Source: a virus
Taxonomy: Duplodnaviria; Caudoviricetes
DNA length: 27,952 nt
Direction: 5' to 3' (one strand)
Virus record (IMG/VR): IMGVR_UViG_3300005573_000243
Location: 1 to 27,952 of that record
This document shows positions 3,318-25,789 of this stretch, one piece after another. A model generated the notes under the pieces. The model had not been told where the DNA came from, searched no databases, and saw only the letters and a program-made list of their open reading frames with translations. Both the position numbers and the translations under genes were made by a program. Position 1 is the stretch's first letter; every line of letters starts with the position of its first letter.

Positions 3318-5073
3318 ACATTCCTAATGCTTTTAAAAGTTGAAAGTTTTTTTCTACATTAACTGGTCTATCTGATTGTTTAGGTAGCCTATGATAAGCA
3401 TACCTTCGCCAGCTTTCCACTGCAATTGCCGCCGCAATAATTCTATCATCGTGTCTTCCTTCTTCTGCCCCTAAATGGCTTCCACTGCGGATAAAAAAGC
3501 TCATCTCTTCTACTAAGTCTTTGCTTTTAACTTCTAATAAGCCCATCTCAAACAAGCTTTTAAACTGACCTAAAAGCGCCTCTTTTGTGTCTGCAGTAGT
3601 TTGCCAGTGCCGAACATAGTTTCTTCTCAGGCTATCACTTCGATAATAAAGATATTCCTTTATGTATCTCAAATTGCTTTTGATATTTTCAACATTAATA
3701 TCCTGCTTATCAAAATTCCAGATTATTTCGCCTATATCATAAGAATTGGTCTTAAGGTTATCTATTTCCTTTAATACCATTCTTCCCGGTCCTTGAACTT
3801 CTATGTTTAGATAAGCATTCTTATAGAAACAAGCAAAGAAAATGCATAATTTAGCATATTCTATAACTCCTACTGCGTTATCTGCATATTCAGCAACCTG
3901 AATTATTTTATCGTTATAGCCTTTCCAAATAGAAATTACTGCGTTATCACTTTCTGAACTCGAACCATAAGAAGGATCAGCGCCGATAAAATAGTTTTCG
4001 TTCTCCTGCGGTAATTCAAAAATCTTTAAGGTGTGGTCTAAACTTCCCGCCTTCTCAACATATACTCCTTTAGCATTTGCAGTAATGTGAAAATAATAAG
4101 CTTTATGCTTTTGTCTCATAAGGTCAGTAAGTTTTTCTGAACTGAAATACCGATAACCAGAAAGTCTAAAAGCCTCCTCGTCATACCAAGGTAACTCTTG
4201 AAGTGCATAATTCATATCATCAGTAAAAGTAGTAGCAACTTCTTTTCTGAACCAAGCAAGTTGTTCAATATCAATATCGATATTATACAATTCCTTAACT
4301 AAGTTTATCCTGTTCTTTTCTTCTCTTGTAGGGGGATAGCCATACTCCCGGAATAAAGGATTAGTCTTTTTAATTCTGTAATCATCTCGCATATACCAGC
4401 CAACAAATATCGCCTTTTGTGACGGATTTTGTTTCGCCGCCTCCCATCTATCATAAAAACTGGTAAAGCCGTTAGCAGTGCTTTCAAGAATAGAATATCT
4501 TGCCGGGTTAGTTTTACTCAAAGAAATCATTAAGGATTTTAAAACTTCATCTGACGGGTCATTGGCAGAATAAAAAGCCGCCTCAGTTGCGTGGAGACAG
4601 GTAAGCGCCTGAGACCTTGCTACTGTCTGCTTAGATGCTTCTCTACTTGAGACGTGCATAAATTGAATTTCACTTCCATTAACAAAGTGCATCATCTCCC
4701 GGTTATCAATCAAGCAAGATACTTTCATTGGTCTTGGAAGGCTAAGATACATACTTCGTAGAATTTCTCTTAGCTTTGGTCTTGCCTCGTAACTATGGCA
4801 AAGGAAACCTAATTTTATTCCTTTGAAACACATAGTCCAGAATAAATCAAAAGCGTGAAGAACCGTAGTAATTCCTAATTGTCTTCCTTTTAAAATAACA
4901 AATTCTCTAATCTCAGAATTCTTTTCTATTTCAGACAAAATCTGATTAAGGACAAACTTCTGGCTTCTAAACCAAGTGTCTGGACTGAAAGAAGTTAATC
5001 CTTTTTCTCTTGAGATAATTTTTAGGTTTTTACTCCACTCAAAAAAATTAGATGAAATTGATGATATTGCCAT
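3277..5073 (-). CDS. terL: Terminase large subunit
   Basis: Walker A-like ILKGRQLGITT, Walker B LHATEAAFY, coupling motif ESTANG, nuclease motifs IGADPSYG and HDDRIIAAAIA. Confidence 0.95.
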   Translation of the reverse strand: MAISSISSNFFEWSKNLKIISREKGLTSFSPDTWFRSQKFVLNQILSEIEKNSEIREFVILKGRQLGITTVLHAFDLFWTMCFKGIKLGFLCHSYEARPKLREILRSMYLSLPRPMKVSCLIDNREMMHFVNGSEIQFMHVSSREASKQTVARSQALTCLHATEAAFYSANDPSDEVLKSLMISLSKTNPARYSILESTANGFTSFYDRWEAAKQNPSQKAIFVGWYMRDDYRIKKTNPLFREYGYPPTREEKNRINLVKELYNIDIDIEQLAWFRKEVATTFTDDMNYALQELPWYDEEAFRLSGYRYFSSEKLTDLMRQKHKAYYFHITANAKGVYVEKAGSLDHTLKIFELPQENENYFIGADPSYGSSSESDNAVISIWKGYNDKIIQVAEYADNAVGVIEYAKLCIFFACFYKNAYLNIEVQGPGRMVLKEIDNLKTNSYDIGEIIWNFDKQDINVENIKSNLRYIKEYLYYRSDSLRRNYVRHWQTTADTKEALLGQFKSLFEMGLLEVKSKDLVEEMSFFIRSGSHLGAEEGRHDDRIIAAAIAVESWRRYAYHRLPKQSDRPVNVEKNFQLLKALGMYEQLKPFIERPAG

Positions 5074-5985: not shown

Positions 5986-8900
5986 ACTCCCTCCGATATT
6001 CTCTTTCCTTTTCTCCTATCTTGAGCCTTAAGGCTTTATCCAAATATTTAGGAAATAAAGGATAATAACTTAAGGCAGTGCCTTGGAAATCCTCAATAAC
6101 TTTTCGTGCTAAGTCATAATAACCAATCTTACCATTCTCAAAGTCTTTTATATCGCTCATTCTATTTTTATCAATTTCCTTTACTATAGCAGACATCATC
6201 GCCGCCTCAAACCATCGTTTAGGATCATCTGATTTTAGTGGCATCTTTGTTGGAACAGCTCTAACCTTTTCAGTTACCGCATTTATGGTATTCCAGTAAT
6301 TATTTAAAATCCGTGTCGCTTCTTCTCTATCTACTTTTCTTCTCAATTGAAGTTGCATATCTTCGGAAAGAGAAGATATAGCCCTGAATTTCATACCAGT
6401 GGAATAAAGCGCCATCAATAATGACCCCGGAACTTTTTCCCCTGCCTCATTAAAGGTTACATTCCTATTAAGGATAGTGTTTCCTATCGATAAAAAGATT
6501 GGCAATGGACTTGCATATAACATCCCGGTAACATCACCCCTTCGAAAGCTATTGTAAGTATCAATAGTGCTACCTGCCATAGGAGAGGTTTTGCCTGCAA
6601 AATATTTAGCCCACTTTCCAGTAGCATCTTTCGCCGCCTCCTTTACTGATTTGTTAGTAGTAAAATATTCATAAAGGAAATCATAAAAAGGCAAAACTCC
6701 TACCAATTCCATTCCTTCAATTTCAAAACCTAATAAGTTAATTTGTGTTCTCTTATATCTCCCGGTTTTTGGGTCTATTGAGACAAGTGGTATATTAAAT
6801 AAGTCCCTCCAATCTTTGGTCTCTTGAAAGTTTTCATAAGTTGTTTTCCCGGTAAGGTGATAACTTACCTCATTTGCAATCAAATAATGAAGTAAGAATA
6901 TTCTTCTAAAAAAGTCAGCAAAGAAAGGATGCCCTTCTATACTCCCAGTTAAGTGCCTTGTAAGAGTTAAATACCAGTCAGGAGCAAAAAGAAGTAATCT
7001 TATAAATTCTCTTGCTTGTGGCTTCATAAAAAGCCATTCATAATTACCGCCGAATACAGCACCTAATTTATTAAGAAAGTTTTCTGCTACTTCTTTTGTA
7101 ATTTTACCTTCTTCAAGCTCTCTTAAAATGTTCCGTGCTGAGGCACATTTTACTGTATAAAATAGCCTGTCCCATAACAGTTTATCAAAACCCGCCGCAA
7201 GCTTTAAAAAGCCAACCTTATCTACATAATAAGCAATTTTGCCTGCCAAAGTCTTCTCACCTATAAACCTTTGGATTTGTTCCCGAATATCATCATAACT
7301 GGATAAATAGAAAGTGGTCTTGATGTTATACTTTCTAATCAAATCATTAACATCTTTCTCCATAGGAACAATATGGTCTTTAAACCACTCATCACCTTTC
7401 AAGACGCTTTCCCAGGCAGTTTTAAGCTCTTTTCCTCTGCCTATTCCGTAAGCCGCAGTGGTAAGTGATTTGAAGTGGATTAAGCCAAAAAGAACCTGCA
7501 CTCTTTTAAGAAGTGTATTTACCTTTGAAAGCCCTCCCCATAAGCCTTTATCTGAAATATCGAATATGTTAACTCGCCCACTAAGCAATGGTCTAAAGGA
7601 ATGTGCAAGAAATTCATAGAAATCTTTATGAAGGTAATAGCCTCCAAGCTCTTCGGGAATTGTCCTAAATAAATTGCTATGCCCACTTATAAAGCTTTCC
7701 GCCTCTCTTAAAGGCATATTATTAAGACGAGCAGTAGTGGCAATTAAGTCTTCTCTTGATTTAGCAACATAAGGAAGATGCCAGATAGGATTAGGCTTAT
7801 ATCTCAAGTCAATATGTTCTATCGTTCTATTTTTTGTATAAAACTCATCAAGTATATTTTTCATCTCCCTTAAAGCCTGTGGCATAATGTAAGTATGAGC
7901 AACATTATCAGAAAAAGTCCTGCCCCTTGCGTAAATTGGCATTAATCCTTTTTTAAGCTCATCTGTATACTTAGTAAGAAGAAAAGGATACCTTCTTGTT
8001 TTTAAGTGCCGTAATGTTTCTATATCTTCTTGATGAAAACCTTGACTTGCAAGCATATTCCAGATACCTTCAAGCTGAGCCTCGCTTGAGACAGAAGTTG
8101 GTTCTTCTATTCCTCTACTTATCTTTGCTGGAAGTCCCGTTCGAATATAATACATCTGATGTCTCAATTCTAAGATTGGTCTTGCGTCATATGGTATAAT
8201 TTTTGCTAATAAGCCTCTTATTTCATCAGCTTTTTTCAAAGTTAAATCTTTTATCTGCTGTTTCAATAATCCTTGTTTTACAAGGCTTATCTTAGAAATA
8301 TCTTTGGATATTCTTATTAACTCATCTCCTATTGCTTCAACTTCTTTGCCAAAGGTTTTCTTATAGTGGTAATTAATGAAGGAAATAGCTTCTTTTAATC
8401 CTCTCTTAACCTCTGACAATTCCTCTTCGGTTTTAACTTTTGGTATTTTCTGGCTAATATCTTTGAGTATATCAACAACTGGAGTAAGGACTTCGTTTTC
8501 TGGTAGCTTAACTAAAACATTTTCTATATCGTAAGCAACCTTTAGAATATCGTCCTTTACCTTTACAGTTTCCTTTAGTTCAGATATTCTTACTCTTTTT
8601 AACTGGTTAACCGTAGTTTTTAAGCCGTTAATAATTTTGTTAATATCTTCTCTATTAGCTAATAACTTTTCTTCTCTTAATCCTGCTAATTCTCCAATCA
8701 ATTGTTCTGTGTCTTTAAGTTCCTTTTTCCAAACATCAGAAGTTACAAATTCCCCTCTCATTAAGCCTGAGGTTAAATTATTGAGTGTCTCAATTTTATT
8801 TGCTATCCGTTGCCTTAATTCGCTTGTTTCTTTATCCAAAGCCTCATAAAATTCTGGTGATAACTTATCAGCAATAATCTTATAGTAATCTTCGGTAGTA

Positions 8901-16114: not shown

Positions 16115-17197
16115 TTAAACGCCAGTTGCAATTGGCATATTCTGCAGTCTAAAATGCGCTATTGGAGCATCGCAGAAAAGCTGAGCACCAAACAGTAAGT
16201 ATGAGAAGTAAGCAAGCTTTCCAGTAATACTCAAATCCTTCCAATCTGATGCTGTAACTGCATAACCGTCACTGAACACAAGCCTGAGGTGTGACCAGTT
16301 GATGAAGAAAATTTCAGTGCTTGAAGTGTCATCAGCTATGTATGGATCAGGAAAGATTGGAATTCCGTTTATTGCTATTCCGGTAACTTCATATTGCCTG
16401 GTCTCATCTAATTTAGCCGGGTCAGCAACAATATACCGTTCAATATTGGTAAAACTTTCCGCCAGTGCCTGGAAGCCTGCAGGAGAAGTAAAACCAACAT
16501 CAGGTAACCCCATTGTAGATGCAAGTTTTTGATATTTGCTCAACGCTCGCATCACATATATAAAATTTGCCAATCCAGTGCCAAATAAAGTTTGAGCATC
16601 CCAGATATAGGAATTCCAGTAAGTATTAGCACTTCTATCAATATTTCCATAATTAGAATTTACCGTTCCGTTATCAATTGCATCCTTAATACCATAAATC
16701 TGAGTAGTGTCTTCCGTTCCGCCACTTACTCTTGTTCCGGTTAGCCAGGTTGCAATCTGACTCATCAATCCAATCCAAGTTTCAGATGCTCGAACCTTGA
16801 CAGCATCATACAACACATTCGGATTGCCTTGCTCATATGCCTTCACTTCAAAATCAGTTGCAATGAAAGTTGACAGTGCCAGATTAAAATAGAAAGTAGC
16901 CATATCCGCAAGGTCAACATCAACCGCAGAAGGAACATTAAAGCTGGCATTATAATCTACTTTCTGCACATTATTAATTTCCTTCTTCGCAACTGGTTGA
17001 GAAATGAAAGGAAAGCTAATTGATTTAACTTCCGAATGTTCAAGCAATCTCCTGGTAAGTGGAGAAAGCTTTCCTAAGTTTTGAGCTACCACATAAGGTG
17101 GAATAGCTCTGCTTAAAGAGTTTAAGTAGTCTTTTGCCCCAGTTTGGTCAGTGGGACTATAAAATCCATAAATTGACCCATAATTAAAGTTTGGCAT
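16115..17197 (-). CDS. Major capsid protein
   Basis: 360 aa with strong AAGGAGGT SD, after the scaffold; HK97-type segments (YGNIDRSANTYWNS, INGIPIFPDPY, IFFINWSHLRL). Confidence 0.88.
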   Translation of the reverse strand: MPNFNYGSIYGFYSPTDQTGAKDYLNSLSRAIPPYVVAQNLGKLSPLTRRLLEHSEVKSISFPFISQPVAKKEINNVQKVDYNASFNVPSAVDVDLADMATFYFNLALSTFIATDFEVKAYEQGNPNVLYDAVKVRASETWIGLMSQIATWLTGTRVSGGTEDTTQIYGIKDAIDNGTVNSNYGNIDRSANTYWNSYIWDAQTLFGTGLANFIYVMRALSKYQKLASTMGLPDVGFTSPAGFQALAESFTNIERYIVADPAKLDETRQYEVTGIAINGIPIFPDPYIADDTSSTEIFFINWSHLRLVFSDGYAVTASDWKDLSITGKLAYFSYLLFGAQLFCDAPIAHFRLQNMPIATGV

Positions 17198-19759: not shown

Positions 19760-19951
19760 TTATTTCCTCCTGCTTCTCTTTGTTTTTCGTGTTTTTCTTT
19801 TAGTCCTCTTACCTGCTCGCCCTGTTCCAGTTATTGAGTAGGCTATGGCAGAAGCTTGAGCAGGACTCCGACCACTTCTTATCTCTTGCCTTATAATCCT
19901 GCTCCGCCAATCTTCAACTCGTTCACCTTTTCTTCTTTTAGGAATAGGCAT
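19760..19951 (-). CDS. 63-aa highly basic protein
   Basis: Core motif SPAQASAIAYS and tail GKRTKRKTRKTKRSRRK; AGGGGGA SD. Confidence 0.75.
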   Translation of the reverse strand: MPIPKRRKGERVEDWRSRIIRQEIRSGRSPAQASAIAYSITGTGRAGKRTKRKTRKTKRSRRK

Positions 19952-20273: not shown

Positions 20274-20447
20274 TTAAATAATTACTGGCATTGACGGTCT
20301 TCTATGTTCTGGTCTTTCTGGTTTTGACGGTCTTCCTCTTCTTTCTGGTATATCTCCTCTAACCGTCGGTTTTCCTTCCCCTCTTCCTTCCCATCTCCTC
20401 CATCCCCTCCATCCTCTTATTCTTCTTATTCTTCTTGTTTCTGGCAT
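20274..20447 (-). CDS. 57-aa Arg-rich peptide (not in ORF track)
   Basis: MPETRRIRRIRGWRGWRRWEGRGEGKPTVRGDIPERRGRPSKPERPEHRRPSMPVII; AAGGAG SD; fills the gap between neighbours. Confidence 0.75.
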   Translation of the reverse strand: MPETRRIRRIRGWRGWRRWEGRGEGKPTVRGDIPERRGRPSKPERPEHRRPSMPVII

Positions 20448-21658: not shown

Positions 21659-22081
21659 TTAAACTCCTGCTGGTGCTGCTGGTGGCATTGCTGGCGGTGC
21701 TCCTGCTGGTGCTCCCGCTGGTGCTCCCGTAGGTGGCATAGCAGGAATTCCTCCACCACTTAACATAGCCCCCAACTGCCCCTGCACTTCTTTAATTTTA
21801 GACTCAGGAACTACTTTCATTAAATTATCGATTGCTTTGGTTATATTTTTCCCCTCTTCGGTAGTATAACCATAAATTCCAACAACCTGCTCTAAAGCAG
21901 CTACAGCCCCTGCTACAATAGTATCGGCAATTTCCTTTGAAGATCCTAAATTAGCAGATGCATTTGCTTCTGCTACTGGTGCTGCTCCCACAGTTTGCCC
22001 TTCCGGTGTAATACCTGGTGCTCCTCCTGCTGGCGGAGTTAAGCTTGTATCAATTCCTAATTGTTCTAAAATACTTGGCAT
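21659..22081 (-). CDS. Pro/Ala/Gly-rich head-module protein
   Basis: Helical core flanked by low-complexity PAGA repeats; AAGGAGGT SD. Confidence 0.7.
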   Translation of the reverse strand: MPSILEQLGIDTSLTPPAGGAPGITPEGQTVGAAPVAEANASANLGSSKEIADTIVAGAVAALEQVVGIYGYTTEEGKNITKAIDNLMKVVPESKIKEVQGQLGAMLSGGGIPAMPPTGAPAGAPAGAPPAMPPAAPAGV

Positions 22082-22136
22082 TTTTACCTCCTTTAAAAAA
22101 AGTTAATCAAAACACTCCGGCAAGGTAGGCTATTAG

Positions 22137-22190
22137 TTACTTACGATGAATCCGGCGAACCCTTTTAACTTTGCGTCCTCTTCGTGCCAT
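22137..22190 (-). CDS. 17-aa protamine-like micropeptide MARRGRKVKRVRRIHRK
   Basis: GAGGTGA SD, ATG, TAA; first 12 nt identical to the neighbouring micro-ORF. Confidence 0.75.
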   Translation of the reverse strand: MARRGRKVKRVRRIHRK

Positions 22191-22227
22191 AGTTTTTCAC
22201 CTCGCTTTCTTTTTTTTAGATTAGTTA

Positions 22228-22272
22228 TTACTTTTTCGCTCTTTTAGTTTTCCGACCTTTTCTTCGTGCCAT
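22228..22272 (-). CDS. 14-aa protamine-like micropeptide MARRKGRKTKRAKK
   Basis: AAGGAG SD, ATG, double TAA stop. Confidence 0.75.
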   Translation of the reverse strand: MARRKGRKTKRAKK

Positions 22273-22329
22273 TGCTTTTTCTCCTTTCTTCCACTAAAAA
22301 GTGGATTAAATTTAATAGCAAACTACTCC

Positions 22330-22398
22330 TTACCGGAGTGTTTTTGCTCTTTGCAATCTTCGATAATATCTCCTAAAGTCTCGCTTATTTCTTTTCAC
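22330..22398 (-). CDS. 22-aa basic micropeptide (M)KRNKRDFRRYYRRLQRAKTLR
   Basis: GTG start 8 nt after the portal stop, preceded by GAGGAG with short spacing; stop lies inside the inverted-repeat arm. Confidence 0.5.
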   Translation of the reverse strand: MKRNKRDFRRYYRRLQRAKTLR

Positions 22399-22405
22399 TG
22401 CTCCT

Positions 22406-23971
22406 CTATTCGTTCTCCGAGCCCTTCGGGGTTTCACGTGAAACCTCCTTTTGCATTTCCTGCAAAGCTTTTGTAGCCATAAACTTCTTTATCTTTTCCT
22501 TCTTTGGTAGTGGTAACATATCAATTACAACATCCGGTGGTATGATATTATTTTCGGCAAGTGCCATTACCATTTCTTGATAAGCAAGTGCAGTTATCGG
22601 TGAAGAAGTATGAGCAAATACATCAACCCGGAATGGTATATTTAGAAGTTCTTTATATTCAATCCGAGAATTTACTATGCAATTAGCATAAGTAGTCATT
22701 ACTTCTTCTAAGAAAGCCTCTGTCCTAAGTGCCTTTTTCTTTAAAACAGTAGAAGCAAACTGAGCTAAAATACTTGCGTAAGATGCACTTCTAACATTTG
22801 CCATCGGCTTTCCAGTAAAAACTCCGATTATTCCTGATTGTTCCTTAAAGGACTCCTCATAGTATTTAATCATCTCAAAAACAAGTGCAGGTTCTAATTT
22901 TGGTAAATAAAAATCAAATTTAGCAGTAGGATCAAAAATTTCTATAACTTCACCGGGTGTCTGAAGCTTTCCTTGCATTTCGTTACTTGCAACTTGTCCT
23001 TGAAGTCCATAAACGATAAGTGGTGGTCTGGTTAACATATTTTCGATATGATCCAGTTTTTCAACCTGAGCCTTAATTTTCAAATAAAGGTTCGTGAGAA
23101 AGTGAAGTTCACTTAAGCCCCAAAAGTAGCCTTCTATTGGATTAGGAGTAAATTTGATAAATGGATGTTCACCAGGAATAAAAGGATTAACTGATTTAAT
23201 GGCAATCTGGTCACCTATAATTTGTGCCATATACCAGTCTTTTTTATCGTAGTCATACATCCATAGTTCATAAATCTCCGCATATTCACCTATTTTTTTA
23301 GGCTCAAGTGTTTCGACAATTTCCCTTTTAATTGGAGTTGCAGTAAAAGTTTTAGTTTGCTGATTCTGACTTATAACTATATCAAGAAAAGACTCAGTTC
23401 TTGATGGTGGTGGGGTTATCCTTAACTCTATATTAGGATATTTTTTTCTTGCTAAGTGAAGTGGAATTCTTGCAATATGACAAAATACTTGGTCTTTATC
23501 TAAATTTGGATTATCCTCGTAATATACTGCAAAATCGTAAGGACAAACTGGCTTAAAGTTTATCTTTCTGCCATCAAATATCGTCTTAACAATATATGAG
23601 CCATAAACAAAACTCCAGAATAGCCACTCATAGAATTCTATATCAAGGCAATCATAAATAAACTTTTCGCTTAAAACCCGTCCAAGTTTATCGAGTAGTT
23701 TTTGCGTATTATCATCAATTGTGTATTCAGGATTAGGGACTATATCAAAGATGATATTATCAGGAAGGTAAATTAGACTAACAATATCTTCGAGAGTTTT
23801 AAAGATGTGGTTCTTTATTTCGTTATTAAAAAGAATATTCCTTAATTCCTTATATCTTTCCTGTCTCAATTCAATATTGGAAAGGCAACCATCCCTGAAG
23901 TCAAGAATTTCCTGGTCAGAATAAGGAAATCCATTTTTATTTTCAGTGATTTTTTGTTTTTTATTTCTCAA
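22406..23971 (-). CDS. Portal protein
   Basis: 521 aa at the head of the virion operon; portal-like segments (FVYGSYIVK, HPFIKFTPNPIEGYFWGLS, SGIIGVFTG). Confidence 0.88.
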   Translation of the reverse strand: MRNKKQKITENKNGFPYSDQEILDFRDGCLSNIELRQERYKELRNILFNNEIKNHIFKTLEDIVSLIYLPDNIIFDIVPNPEYTIDDNTQKLLDKLGRVLSEKFIYDCLDIEFYEWLFWSFVYGSYIVKTIFDGRKINFKPVCPYDFAVYYEDNPNLDKDQVFCHIARIPLHLARKKYPNIELRITPPPSRTESFLDIVISQNQQTKTFTATPIKREIVETLEPKKIGEYAEIYELWMYDYDKKDWYMAQIIGDQIAIKSVNPFIPGEHPFIKFTPNPIEGYFWGLSELHFLTNLYLKIKAQVEKLDHIENMLTRPPLIVYGLQGQVASNEMQGKLQTPGEVIEIFDPTAKFDFYLPKLEPALVFEMIKYYEESFKEQSGIIGVFTGKPMANVRSASYASILAQFASTVLKKKALRTEAFLEEVMTTYANCIVNSRIEYKELLNIPFRVDVFAHTSSPITALAYQEMVMALAENNIIPPDVVIDMLPLPKKEKIKKFMATKALQEMQKEVSRETPKGSENE

Positions 23972-24445: not shown

Positions 24446-24515
24446 TACCCTCCTCTCATAACTTCCTCCTTTGCGGAAGCCTTTCCATAGTTTCCCAGCT
24501 ATGGGAAGGCTTTTT
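24446..24515 (+). ncRNA. Candidate ~70-nt small RNA with two anti-SD motifs
   Basis: Lies between a promoter and an intrinsic terminator, has no ORF, and carries CCUCCU at 24449 and CCUCCUUU at 24465. Confidence 0.5.
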
Positions 24516-24704: not shown

Positions 24705-24732
24705 GGAGGTAATTTATGGAGATAGAAATTGA
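24598..24732 (+). CDS. Putative 44-aa leader peptide (MQKFQRKL...)
   Basis: AAGGTGGT SD-like sequence; runs through the hairpin and overlaps the ParB-MTase start. Confidence 0.45.
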   Translation: MQKFQRKLDSLASKALAEKPTKGSHYLIARVFTGFLEVIYGDRN

Positions 24733-25789
24733 AAAAATAAAAGACACCGCACCAAGAAGAGAACACGGAAATATTGAAGAGTTAAAGAATTCTATCAAGG
24801 AAGTTGGTCTCATTAATCCACTTACAATTAACCAGAATTATCGCTTACTTGCAGGTAGAAGGCGCTTTCAAGCTCTAAAAGAACTTGGTTTCAAAACCGT
24901 TCCGGTCCGAGTGCTTGAAAGTGAAGATGAGCTTTTCGATTTCCGGGTTGCACTGATTGAGAATATCCAAAGGAAAAACCTGAGCGATCCGGAGTTAGCG
25001 GCGGCGATCAAGGAATATGATGAGATGATGAGGAGGCTAAAAGGATCAAAACCAAAAGGAAACATAGAGACCTTAAAACAATTTACCGATTTACCACAGT
25101 GTAATAAATCGGAAGGTTGGACTCAAGAGCAAACCGCCAAAAACCTGAATATCTCTCAACCGGCAGTAAGCAAAGCCATCCAAATAGCCACTGCCATTGA
25201 AGAGTATCCGGAATTAGCAAAAGAGAGGAAGGGAAATGTAATTATCAAGAAATATAAAAGAAAAAAAGATGAAGAGAAAATTAAAAATAAAAAATTTCCG
25301 GTAATTGAAGGAAAATATAAAACAATTTTAATTGATCCACCCTGGGATTATGAACTTAATCTCGACGGCAGGGCAAAGCCTGAATATGCAACAATGGATT
25401 TAGAAGAACTGAAAAAAATGCATATAGAGAAATATGCGGAAGAAAATTGCCATCTTTATATTTGGAGCACAAATAATAATATTCCACTCGCTTTGGAACT
25501 TGGTTCTTATTGGGGTTTTTCTTATAAAACCTTAATTACCTGGGTCAAACCATCAATAGGTATGGGTTCTTATTTTAGAAACAGCACAGAACAACTTTTA
25601 TTTTTTGTTAAGGGGAAATTATCTACAAGAACAAAAGATATTGAAACTCATTTTGAAGCCCCCCGTGGAAAGCATTCTGAGAAACCAGAATATTCATACC
25701 AATTAATTGAAAAAGCTTCATATCCAGCTTATTTAGAAATATTTGGCAGAAAGAAAAGAGAAGGTTGGAATGTATGGGGAAATTTTTAA
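24716..25789 (+). CDS. ParB-like domain fused to MT-A70 family adenine methyltransferase
   Basis: ParB motifs GLINPL, LLAGRRR, ENIQRKNL; HTH WTQEQTAKNLNISQPAVS; MT-A70 motifs ILIDPPW, HSEKP, LEIFGR. Confidence 0.9.
   Translation: MEIEIEKIKDTAPRREHGNIEELKNSIKEVGLINPLTINQNYRLLAGRRRFQALKELGFKTVPVRVLESEDELFDFRVALIENIQRKNLSDPELAAAIKEYDEMMRRLKGSKPKGNIETLKQFTDLPQCNKSEGWTQEQTAKNLNISQPAVSKAIQIATAIEEYPELAKERKGNVIIKKYKRKKDEEKIKNKKFPVIEGKYKTILIDPPWDYELNLDGRAKPEYATMDLEELKKMHIEKYAEENCHLYIWSTNNNIPLALELGSYWGFSYKTLITWVKPSIGMGSYFRNSTEQLLFFVKGKLSTRTKDIETHFEAPRGKHSEKPEYSYQLIEKASYPAYLEIFGRKKREGWNVWGNF

Follow-up and report, generated by a model that had tools for sequence, protein, structure and literature searches.

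The window, by which we mean the whole stretch of 27,952 nucleotides analyzed here, is an IMG/VR virus record with a CheckV completeness of 68%, and its DNA originates from hot-spring metagenome runs; of the six runs listed for the sequence, none is an RNA run. No match was returned when the window was compared with a phage nucleotide collection. The structural operon is encoded on the minus strand, where a portal gene is followed by a small cassette, a gene for a 140-aa protein and, further on, the gene of the major head protein (16115-17197, minus strand; phrog_9953). The portal gene (22406-23971, minus strand; phrog_1216, E 6.8e-4) lies 5' of the cassette, and a profile search recovered 311 relatives of it. 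The next gene (21659-22081, minus strand) encodes the 140-aa protein, which has no assigned function and an Ala/Pro-rich C-terminus, and its SD sequence, AAAGGAGGU, is located about 15 nt past the 3' arm of the helix described below. The PAGA repeats of this C-terminus are encoded by a 12-nt periodic repeat (21664-21749, minus strand), and the length of the tail differs between relatives. Two more small and very basic ORFs are found in the structural module, one of 63 aa (19760-19951, minus strand) that matches phrog_2423, a family of unknown function (E 5.8e-7), and one of 57 aa (20274-20447, minus strand); similar small basic ORFs occur at 7262-7527 of the related locus L011. A strong terminator-like hairpin of 18 pairs followed by a T run (24475-24514, plus strand) is located where the structural operon and the plus-strand genes diverge, in the intergenic region that separates them. 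On the plus strand, a gene at 24716-25789 encodes a ParB N-terminal domain fused to an MT-A70 DNA methyltransferase (PF02195, E 4.1e-14; PF05063, E 7.1e-23).

ORF0 is an unannotated, Arg-rich ORF of 35 aa (MKPRRARRTNRGAVKRNKRDFRRYYRRLQRAKTLR; 22330-22437, minus strand) whose GTG start, 6 nt after AAGGAGG, lies in the +1 frame inside the 3' end of the portal gene and whose stop falls within the 5' arm of the helix. This overlap between the coding end of ORF0 and the 5' arm is newly recognized here and was absent from the earlier note on this DNA. Homologues of ORF0 are present in lineages B, C, E, F, G and H of the relatives defined below: the window sequence reads MKPRRARRTNRG...AKTLR, those of lineages B and C end in KGTLR, and those of lineages E-H begin with MRPRKARKRPK. 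Between L036 and L038, the ORF0 frame is kept while the overlapping portal tail varies freely. Among the codons that differ between close pairs, the ratio of synonymous to non-synonymous changes is 17/27 in the ORF0 frame and 7/38 and 11/34 in the other frames, so the coding signal is modest. In lineage D, the frame is open and lacks an ATG, GTG or TTG start, and it may represent a frameshift extension of the portal protein.

Downstream of ORF0, micro-ORF1 encodes a 14-aa peptide (MARRKGRKTKRAKK; 22228-22272, minus strand) and is preceded by the SD sequence AAAGGAG. Differing codons within the micro-ORF1 family give a clear coding signature, with synonymous to non-synonymous counts of 11/4 in frame and of 0/15 and 3/13 out of frame. 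Micro-ORF2 (17 aa, MARRGRKVKRVRRIHRK; 22137-22190, minus strand) is a tandem duplicate of micro-ORF1 that is likewise led by an SD sequence, and a direct repeat of 19 nt (22179-22197 and 22261-22279) covers both micro-ORF starts. The tandem pair is limited to the lineage of the window, while relatives carry one micro-ORF. The ORF0 and ORF1 peptides consist of 47-71% Lys and Arg. Neither matched any family in Pfam or PHROGs, and no match at or above 0.9 was found for them in a protein atlas. In a search of genome contigs, the sole match was a PAS-domain sensor sharing YGYTTEE, which was dismissed as a chance match.

In the minus-strand RNA, the flanks of the two micro-ORFs pair with each other to form a long-range helix. 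Its core consists of a 17-nt 5' arm (AAAACACUCCGGUAAGG; 22328-22344, minus strand), which includes the last codons and the UAA stop (22332-22330) of ORF0, and a non-coding 17-nt 3' arm (CCUUGCCGGAGUGUUUU; 22109-22125, minus strand); positions 22344-22328 pair with 22125-22109 in 17 bp, of which 16 are Watson-Crick pairs and one is U.G (U22332.G22121). Inward of this core, an AG bulge is followed by UAG/CUA (3 bp), a UUU bulge and GCUAUUA/UAAUAGC (7 bp), which brings the helix of the window to 27 bp. The 5' side of the inner extension (22313-22325, minus strand), with UAG at 22325-22323, the UUU bulge and GCUAUUA at 22319-22313, is restricted to the window's lineage. The 3' side (22126-22135, minus strand), with UAAUAGC at 22135-22129 and CUA at 22128-22126, begins 1 nt past the stop of micro-ORF2. 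The enclosed loop (22312-22136) is 177 nt long and contains both micro-ORFs. The earlier note had described this stem on the minus strand as 17 bp, a 2-nt bulge, 3 bp, a 3-nt bulge and 7 bp around a loop of about 175 nt holding two micro-ORFs, with U.G on the transcribed strand as the sole non-Watson-Crick position, and both descriptions proved accurate. A 6-bp hairpin and U tracts past the 3' arm, which it had also listed, are both present; the hairpin (UCCACU/AGUGGA; 22290-22305, minus strand) lies 5' of the micro-ORF1 SD sequence and occurs in the window's lineage only, not in lineages B-D. Folding of the reverse complement of 22090-22410 with RNAfold, proposed there as a check, placed the entire helix in both the minimum free energy (MFE) structure and the centroid.

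The helix stands out against chance pairing at the level of its arms. An inverted-repeat search recovered the arms as a 17-nt inverted repeat of 94%, and the 17-mer, with up to 3 mismatches allowed, matched at the two arms only, at least two matches being reached in 0/100 shuffles. The flank-to-flank duplex of the window (dG -36.5, z -5.6) was equaled by none of 200 shuffles, and the MFE of the whole 321-nt region is modestly unusual (z -2.38; 2/100 shuffles as good). No comparable helix was found around other genes of the window among the 25 longest of 55 inverted pairs inspected. A second helix, corresponding to a 27-nt inverted repeat (1-27/140-166) that shares AAACACUCC with the stem, was set aside: in two runs, the contigs depart from the window sequence ahead of position 22, so positions 1-21 are probably an assembly fold-back artefact. 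The motif AAACACUCC occurs once only in the complete relative G001.

Related loci were gathered with the portal protein, portal profiles and the 140-aa protein, and the DNA past the portal gene was inspected in each. Ten lineages were defined by a MAR(R/K)K-type micro-ORF: A (the window, L001 and L002), B (L003 and L004), C (L011, L012, L013, L014, L017, L018 and L029), D (L010, L021 and L022), E (L036-L040), F (L041-L044), G (L045), H (L046 and L047), I (L064) and J (L057). Portals of lineages B-D share 64-66% identity with that of the window, and those of lineages E-H share 71-100% identity with P0002, which is itself 47% identical to the window portal; the portals of lineages I and J are 30% and 34% identical to P0002, respectively. 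The helix was found in the same position in all ten lineages that carry the micro-ORF and in all 12 representative sequences. When the 70-75 nt before the micro-ORF were tested for pairing with the 45-50 nt after its stop, the 12 representatives formed duplexes of 17-39 bp, with dG values from -27 to -51 kcal/mol and z scores from -2.9 to -9.5, and 0-2 of 200 shuffles reached them. The enclosed loops range from 53 to 177 nt across lineages, and the arms flank a cassette with one micro-ORF or with two.

The sequences of the arms are unrelated between clades, as seen in L036 (GCAGGUCAAGGGUA / UACCUUUGACCUGC), L041 (GAAGGGUAGAGAAA / UUUCUCUACCCUUC), L046 (GGCGGGGGGCAUA / UAUGCCCCCUGCC), L064 (AAUAGACGGAGUAAA / UUUACUCCGUCUAUU) and L057 (AGCCCAGCCCAGCCG / CGGCUGGGCUGGGU). 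The location of the arms relative to the reading frames follows a regular pattern. The ORF0 stop falls within the 5' arm in seven lineages (A, B, C, E, F, G and J) and 9-12 nt past it in lineages H and I, and in lineage D the portal stop abuts the 5' arm. At the other end, the micro-ORF stop lies 0-7 nt 5' of the 3' arm, and the heptamer UAACUAA follows or overlaps this stop in eight of ten lineages, being replaced by UAAUUAC in D and by UGACAAA in G. The cassette adjoins the portal gene in all lineages except that of L057. In five further loci (L059-L062 and L066), the 450 nt past the portal match contain no basic micro-ORF, and L063 has a 14-aa ORF that lacks a flanking helix; the loci that lack the cassette thus also lack the helix; L065, a portal fragment at a contig end, was left out of this cassette-less comparison.

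Pairing in the arms is maintained by compensatory change. For lineages A-D, a MAFFT alignment of 7 distinct sequences provided 16 well-aligned pairs, 2 pairs having been omitted where a 4-column gap was misplaced. In this clade, 95.5% of the cells are paired, compared with 34-49% when the partner is slid by 1-3 columns, and 7 of the 16 pairs have changed on both sides; the observed values were reached by 0/500 shuffles. The double changes replace A-U with G-C at four positions and alternate between U-A, U.G and C-G at one. For lineages E-H, RNAalifold predicted 17 consensus pairs from 9 sequences, 6 of them with compensatory changes, in an alignment in which lineage H is misaligned. Compensatory changes are thus frequent, and the absence of stem covariation among relatives, which the earlier note had named as an observation that would speak against its reading, was not what the alignments gave.

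Since an A.C mismatch on one strand corresponds to a wobble on the opposite strand, the distribution of wobbles indicates on which strand pairing is maintained. On the sense strand, 23 G.U wobbles were counted against 1 A.C, the latter among seven 1x1 mismatches (12 sequences from 9 lineages, whose counts are not independent of one another); per lineage, at least one G.U is present in 7/9 and an A.C in 1/9. Lineages A, D, E, F and H have a duplex that is more stable in the sense than in the antisense orientation; in C the two orientations are about equally stable, and in B and G the sense duplex is slightly the weaker one. In predicted folds, the helix is kept in the MFE structure at both 37 and 65 °C in 10/10 representatives, and its persistence at 65 °C matters because the DNA comes from hot-spring metagenomes. 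Wobbles confined almost entirely to the sense strand argue that the element acts as RNA rather than as a DNA switch, and the comparative evidence indicates that the helix is selected for pairing as sense-strand RNA. The RNA-level function on the transcribed strand that had been proposed from the window alone is strongly supported by the recurrence of the helix in 10/10 lineages, by the 7/16 compensated pairs and by the bias of 23 G.U against 1 A.C.

The predicted folds also bear on how the enclosed cistron might be translated. The ribosome-binding sites of the micro-ORF and the next gene are located outside the helix. With the helix formed, the SD sequences and starts of both are predicted to be mostly unpaired in 9/10 representatives, so the loop could be translated while closed. 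The predicted accessibility of the micro-ORF ribosome-binding site is 0.33-0.93 in these nine and 0.06-0.07 in L064, where the 3' flank is predicted to pair with the SD sequence and AUG of the micro-ORF in a coaxial arrangement with the outer helix (positions ~4220-4360). Pairing of the SD sequence or start, as expected for start-site sequestration of the MS2 or hok type, is therefore predicted in L064 only and not in the other 9/10. In lineages E-G, the inner 5' arm recurs as UUAACUAA at the micro-ORF stop (UAACUAA; L036 ~2215-2245, L041 ~4195-4225), so a local hairpin with the inner 3' arm can replace the inner part of the long-range helix. A ribosome-binding-site switch was examined by constrained folding with the 5' arm blocked and was rejected, as accessibility did not shift consistently across lineages at the ribosome-binding site of either the micro-ORF or the next gene.

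The reading that we grade highest, and hold tentatively, is that the helix likely serves as a processing stalk of the RNase III type, setting the boundaries of a stable micro-cistron. In the late mRNA transcribed from the minus strand, the 3' end of ORF0 would pair with the sequence just past the micro-ORF stop and thereby close the micropeptide cistron or cistrons into a loop. A host double-strand-specific RNase would then release the micro-cistron from the polycistronic transcript as a stable, base-paired mini-mRNA, and a ribosome completing ORF0 would melt the 5' arm, so that translation of ORF0 would compete with formation or cleavage of the helix. Cleavage by RNase III is plausible, and we infer that the excised micro-cistron would have higher stability or output. 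A review puts the idealized RNase III substrate at 22 bp and the shortest at about 11 bp, and states that most T7 transcripts have an RNase III site that is required for optimal protein yield. Measured against these lengths, all 12 representatives lie above the minimum with 17-39 bp, although lineages B, C and H, with just 17-22 bp interrupted by a mismatch or bulge, are borderline two-turn substrates. The RNase III domain PF14622 was found in neither of two records searched (the window record and one complete relative); a host enzyme would therefore be needed, and its presence in the host is assumed.

Several observations count against simple excision. A cut within the helix would remove the ORF0 stop in seven lineages, which looks costly unless it is regulatory. 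The predicted pairing of the SD sequence and AUG in L064 points to translational control instead, and the length of the helix may be no more than what closing a large loop stably requires at high temperature. A more elaborate version of the processing stalk, which we consider unlikely, is a closed-loop micro-cistron in which ORF0 contributes its coding end to part of the helix and the helix holds the start and stop of ORF1 together. Such a tiny message would be excised by a double-strand RNase, resist nucleases and be self-recycling, mass-producing protamine-like peptides that are perhaps packaged with the DNA of a thermophilic tailed phage.

The main rival to the processing stalk, possible but to our judgment less probable, is a helix that is never cleaved and is linked to translation instead. 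A ribosome on ORF0, or on the portal gene in lineage D, would melt the 5' arm, and the re-formed helix could bring the stop of the micro-cistron beside its start, setting the ORF0:ORF1 ratio, favoring re-initiation or acting as a gate, all without a nuclease. The placement of the arms agrees with this, given the ORF0 stop within the 5' arm in seven lineages or 9-12 nt past it in two, the portal stop abutting the arm in D and the micro-ORF stop 0-7 nt before the 3' arm. So do two predicted features, namely the pairing of the 3' flank with the micro-ORF SD sequence and AUG in L064 (accessibility 0.06-0.07, versus 0.33-0.93 elsewhere) and the local hairpin of lineages E-G, which can substitute for the inner helix when the 5' arm is blocked. 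Against it, blocking the 5' arm in silico produced no consistent change in accessibility across lineages, and start sites are predicted to be sequestered in just 1/10 lineages. The helix might alternatively be a passive stabilizer or insulator, which shields the late mRNA from single-strand RNases and heat and keeps an A-rich loop with a strong SD sequence unstructured, and which would act neither as a switch nor as a cleavage site. Its predicted persistence at 65 °C, the A-rich loops, the open ribosome-binding sites and the hot-spring source would all fit; we nevertheless regard this as unlikely, as it leaves unexplained why the 5' arm is always found where the upstream cistron ends and the 3' arm immediately past the micro-ORF stop, and other genes of the window lack a comparable bracketing helix (25 longest of 55 inverted pairs).

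Two further explanations are graded lower. Because arginine-rich motifs bind RNA hairpins, the Arg-rich ORF0 peptide, the ORF1 peptide or both might bind the helix and feed back on their own synthesis, and these peptides, with 47-71% Lys and Arg, are always encoded alongside it. The arms are nevertheless unrelated between clades although the peptides stay similar; sequence-specific contact between peptide and RNA is therefore unlikely, and autoregulation of this kind appears improbable. An inverted repeat that functions in DNA, as an invertible segment, as the ends of a mobile cassette or as a protein-binding palindrome or cruciform, is the least probable of the explanations, and very much so. 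Inverted repeats do flank a small cassette here, and covariation alone does not distinguish DNA from RNA. Mismatches in a DNA element would be expected to be unbiased between strands, with G.T as common as A.C, however, which is at odds with the 23 G.U against 1 A.C on the sense strand, and the cassette occupies the same site, where ORF0 overlaps the end of the portal gene, in clades that share just 47% portal identity. An invertible or mobile segment would be expected to show both orientations or empty sites in DNA. An inversion check, which the earlier note had suggested for reads, was made here on contigs: those of two runs cover 21800-22700 in collinear order, and none of 4 runs lists an inversion joint, a comparison in which contigs cannot prove absence.

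That note had also offered a long-range terminator as an alternative, and this part of it was not supported. The U tract past the 3' arm exists in the window's lineage only, its place being taken by CCCUUAAAUAAAAA in lineages B and C, and the loops measure 53-177 nt. An intrinsic terminator would have a G+C-rich stem, a short loop and a conserved U tract directly after it, so the lack of U-tract conservation and the great size of the loops led to the rejection of this reading. A terminator scan likewise listed no site for the long-range stem. Retrons, ribozymes and the archaeal bulge-helix-bulge motif were considered and rejected, as there was no Rfam match and both bulges lie on the same strand, and translational bypass between the arms was rejected on account of the lack of matching take-off and landing codons in lineage B. 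At the gathering score, Rfam gave no match in the window, and a permissive scan of 21950-22550 returned only InvR, on the other strand, at 20.8 bits, where the gathering score is 60 (E 0.17).

In bacterial rRNA operons, RNase III processing stalks are long-range helices around the 16S and 23S sequences. The phage helix resembles them in that flanks separated by tens to hundreds of nucleotides pair around a functional unit, and in that covariation keeps the helix and not the sequence; it differs in enclosing a translated cistron of 14-24 codons, in having one protein-coding arm and in that its cleavage is putative. In the coat-replicase interaction of the RNA phage MS2, a helix hides a downstream start site. 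Similarly, translation through one partner would open the phage helix, whereas hiding of the start site is predicted here in L064 only. In the arfA mRNA of E. coli, a local hairpin near the 3' end of a small coding region is cut by RNase III and serves in the sensing of ribosome rescue. Both helices cover the 3' end and stop of a small ORF, where a cut would yield a non-stop message, but the hairpin is local in arfA and long-range here, and a logic of ribosome rescue is not in evidence in the phage.

The RNase III sites of T7 are local hairpins with internal loops, whereas the helix described here forms over a long range, has an entire cistron within it and shares sequence with the end of an ORF. 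They share with it the position of a double-stranded RNA element between genes of a phage polycistronic mRNA and a proposed role in stability or yield. Type I toxin mRNAs, including the hok/mok fold-back and AapA1 of H. pylori, are also alike in that a long-range helix closes the mRNA of a very small protein and an overlapping or upstream frame is present. Those helices render the mRNA translationally inert and the peptides are hydrophobic toxins; the phage cassette, by contrast, belongs to a structural operon and encodes poly-basic peptides, its ribosome-binding site is predicted to be open in 9/10 lineages, and there is no evident antisense RNA. None of these four systems, the rRNA stalk, the T7 site, the type I fold-back and MS2 coupling, is matched in full in the defining features that were tested. 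In the literature consulted, largely consisting of abstracts, no description was found of a helix-bracketed basic micro-ORF beside a phage portal gene.

Long-range mRNA helices and RNase III sites are already known as such. What is distinctive here is that a translated micro-cistron is bracketed, that one arm is shared with a second micro-ORF and that the helix is conserved despite complete divergence of its arms. Beside the portal gene of hot-spring phages, the cassette defines an RNA element and two families of micro-proteins, ORF0 with about 30-35 aa and ORF1 with 14-24 aa, none of them annotated before. If the micro-cistron is indeed processed or kept as a closed loop, the arrangement would be a compact, naturally evolved way of making short peptides in very large amounts at high temperature, and one would have to ask whether poly-basic peptides are packaged along with the DNA of tailed dsDNA phages.

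Variation close to the window was also recorded. The strain variant X3 differs across 22095-22375 by 6 substitutions and one 1-nt deletion, none of which falls in the arms, numbers that are too small for significance. In run X2, a probable source run, one contig matches both flanks of the cassette and has 387 other letters in place of the 511 at 22081-22593, which fits a related phage lineage with a different cassette that co-occurs in the same sample.
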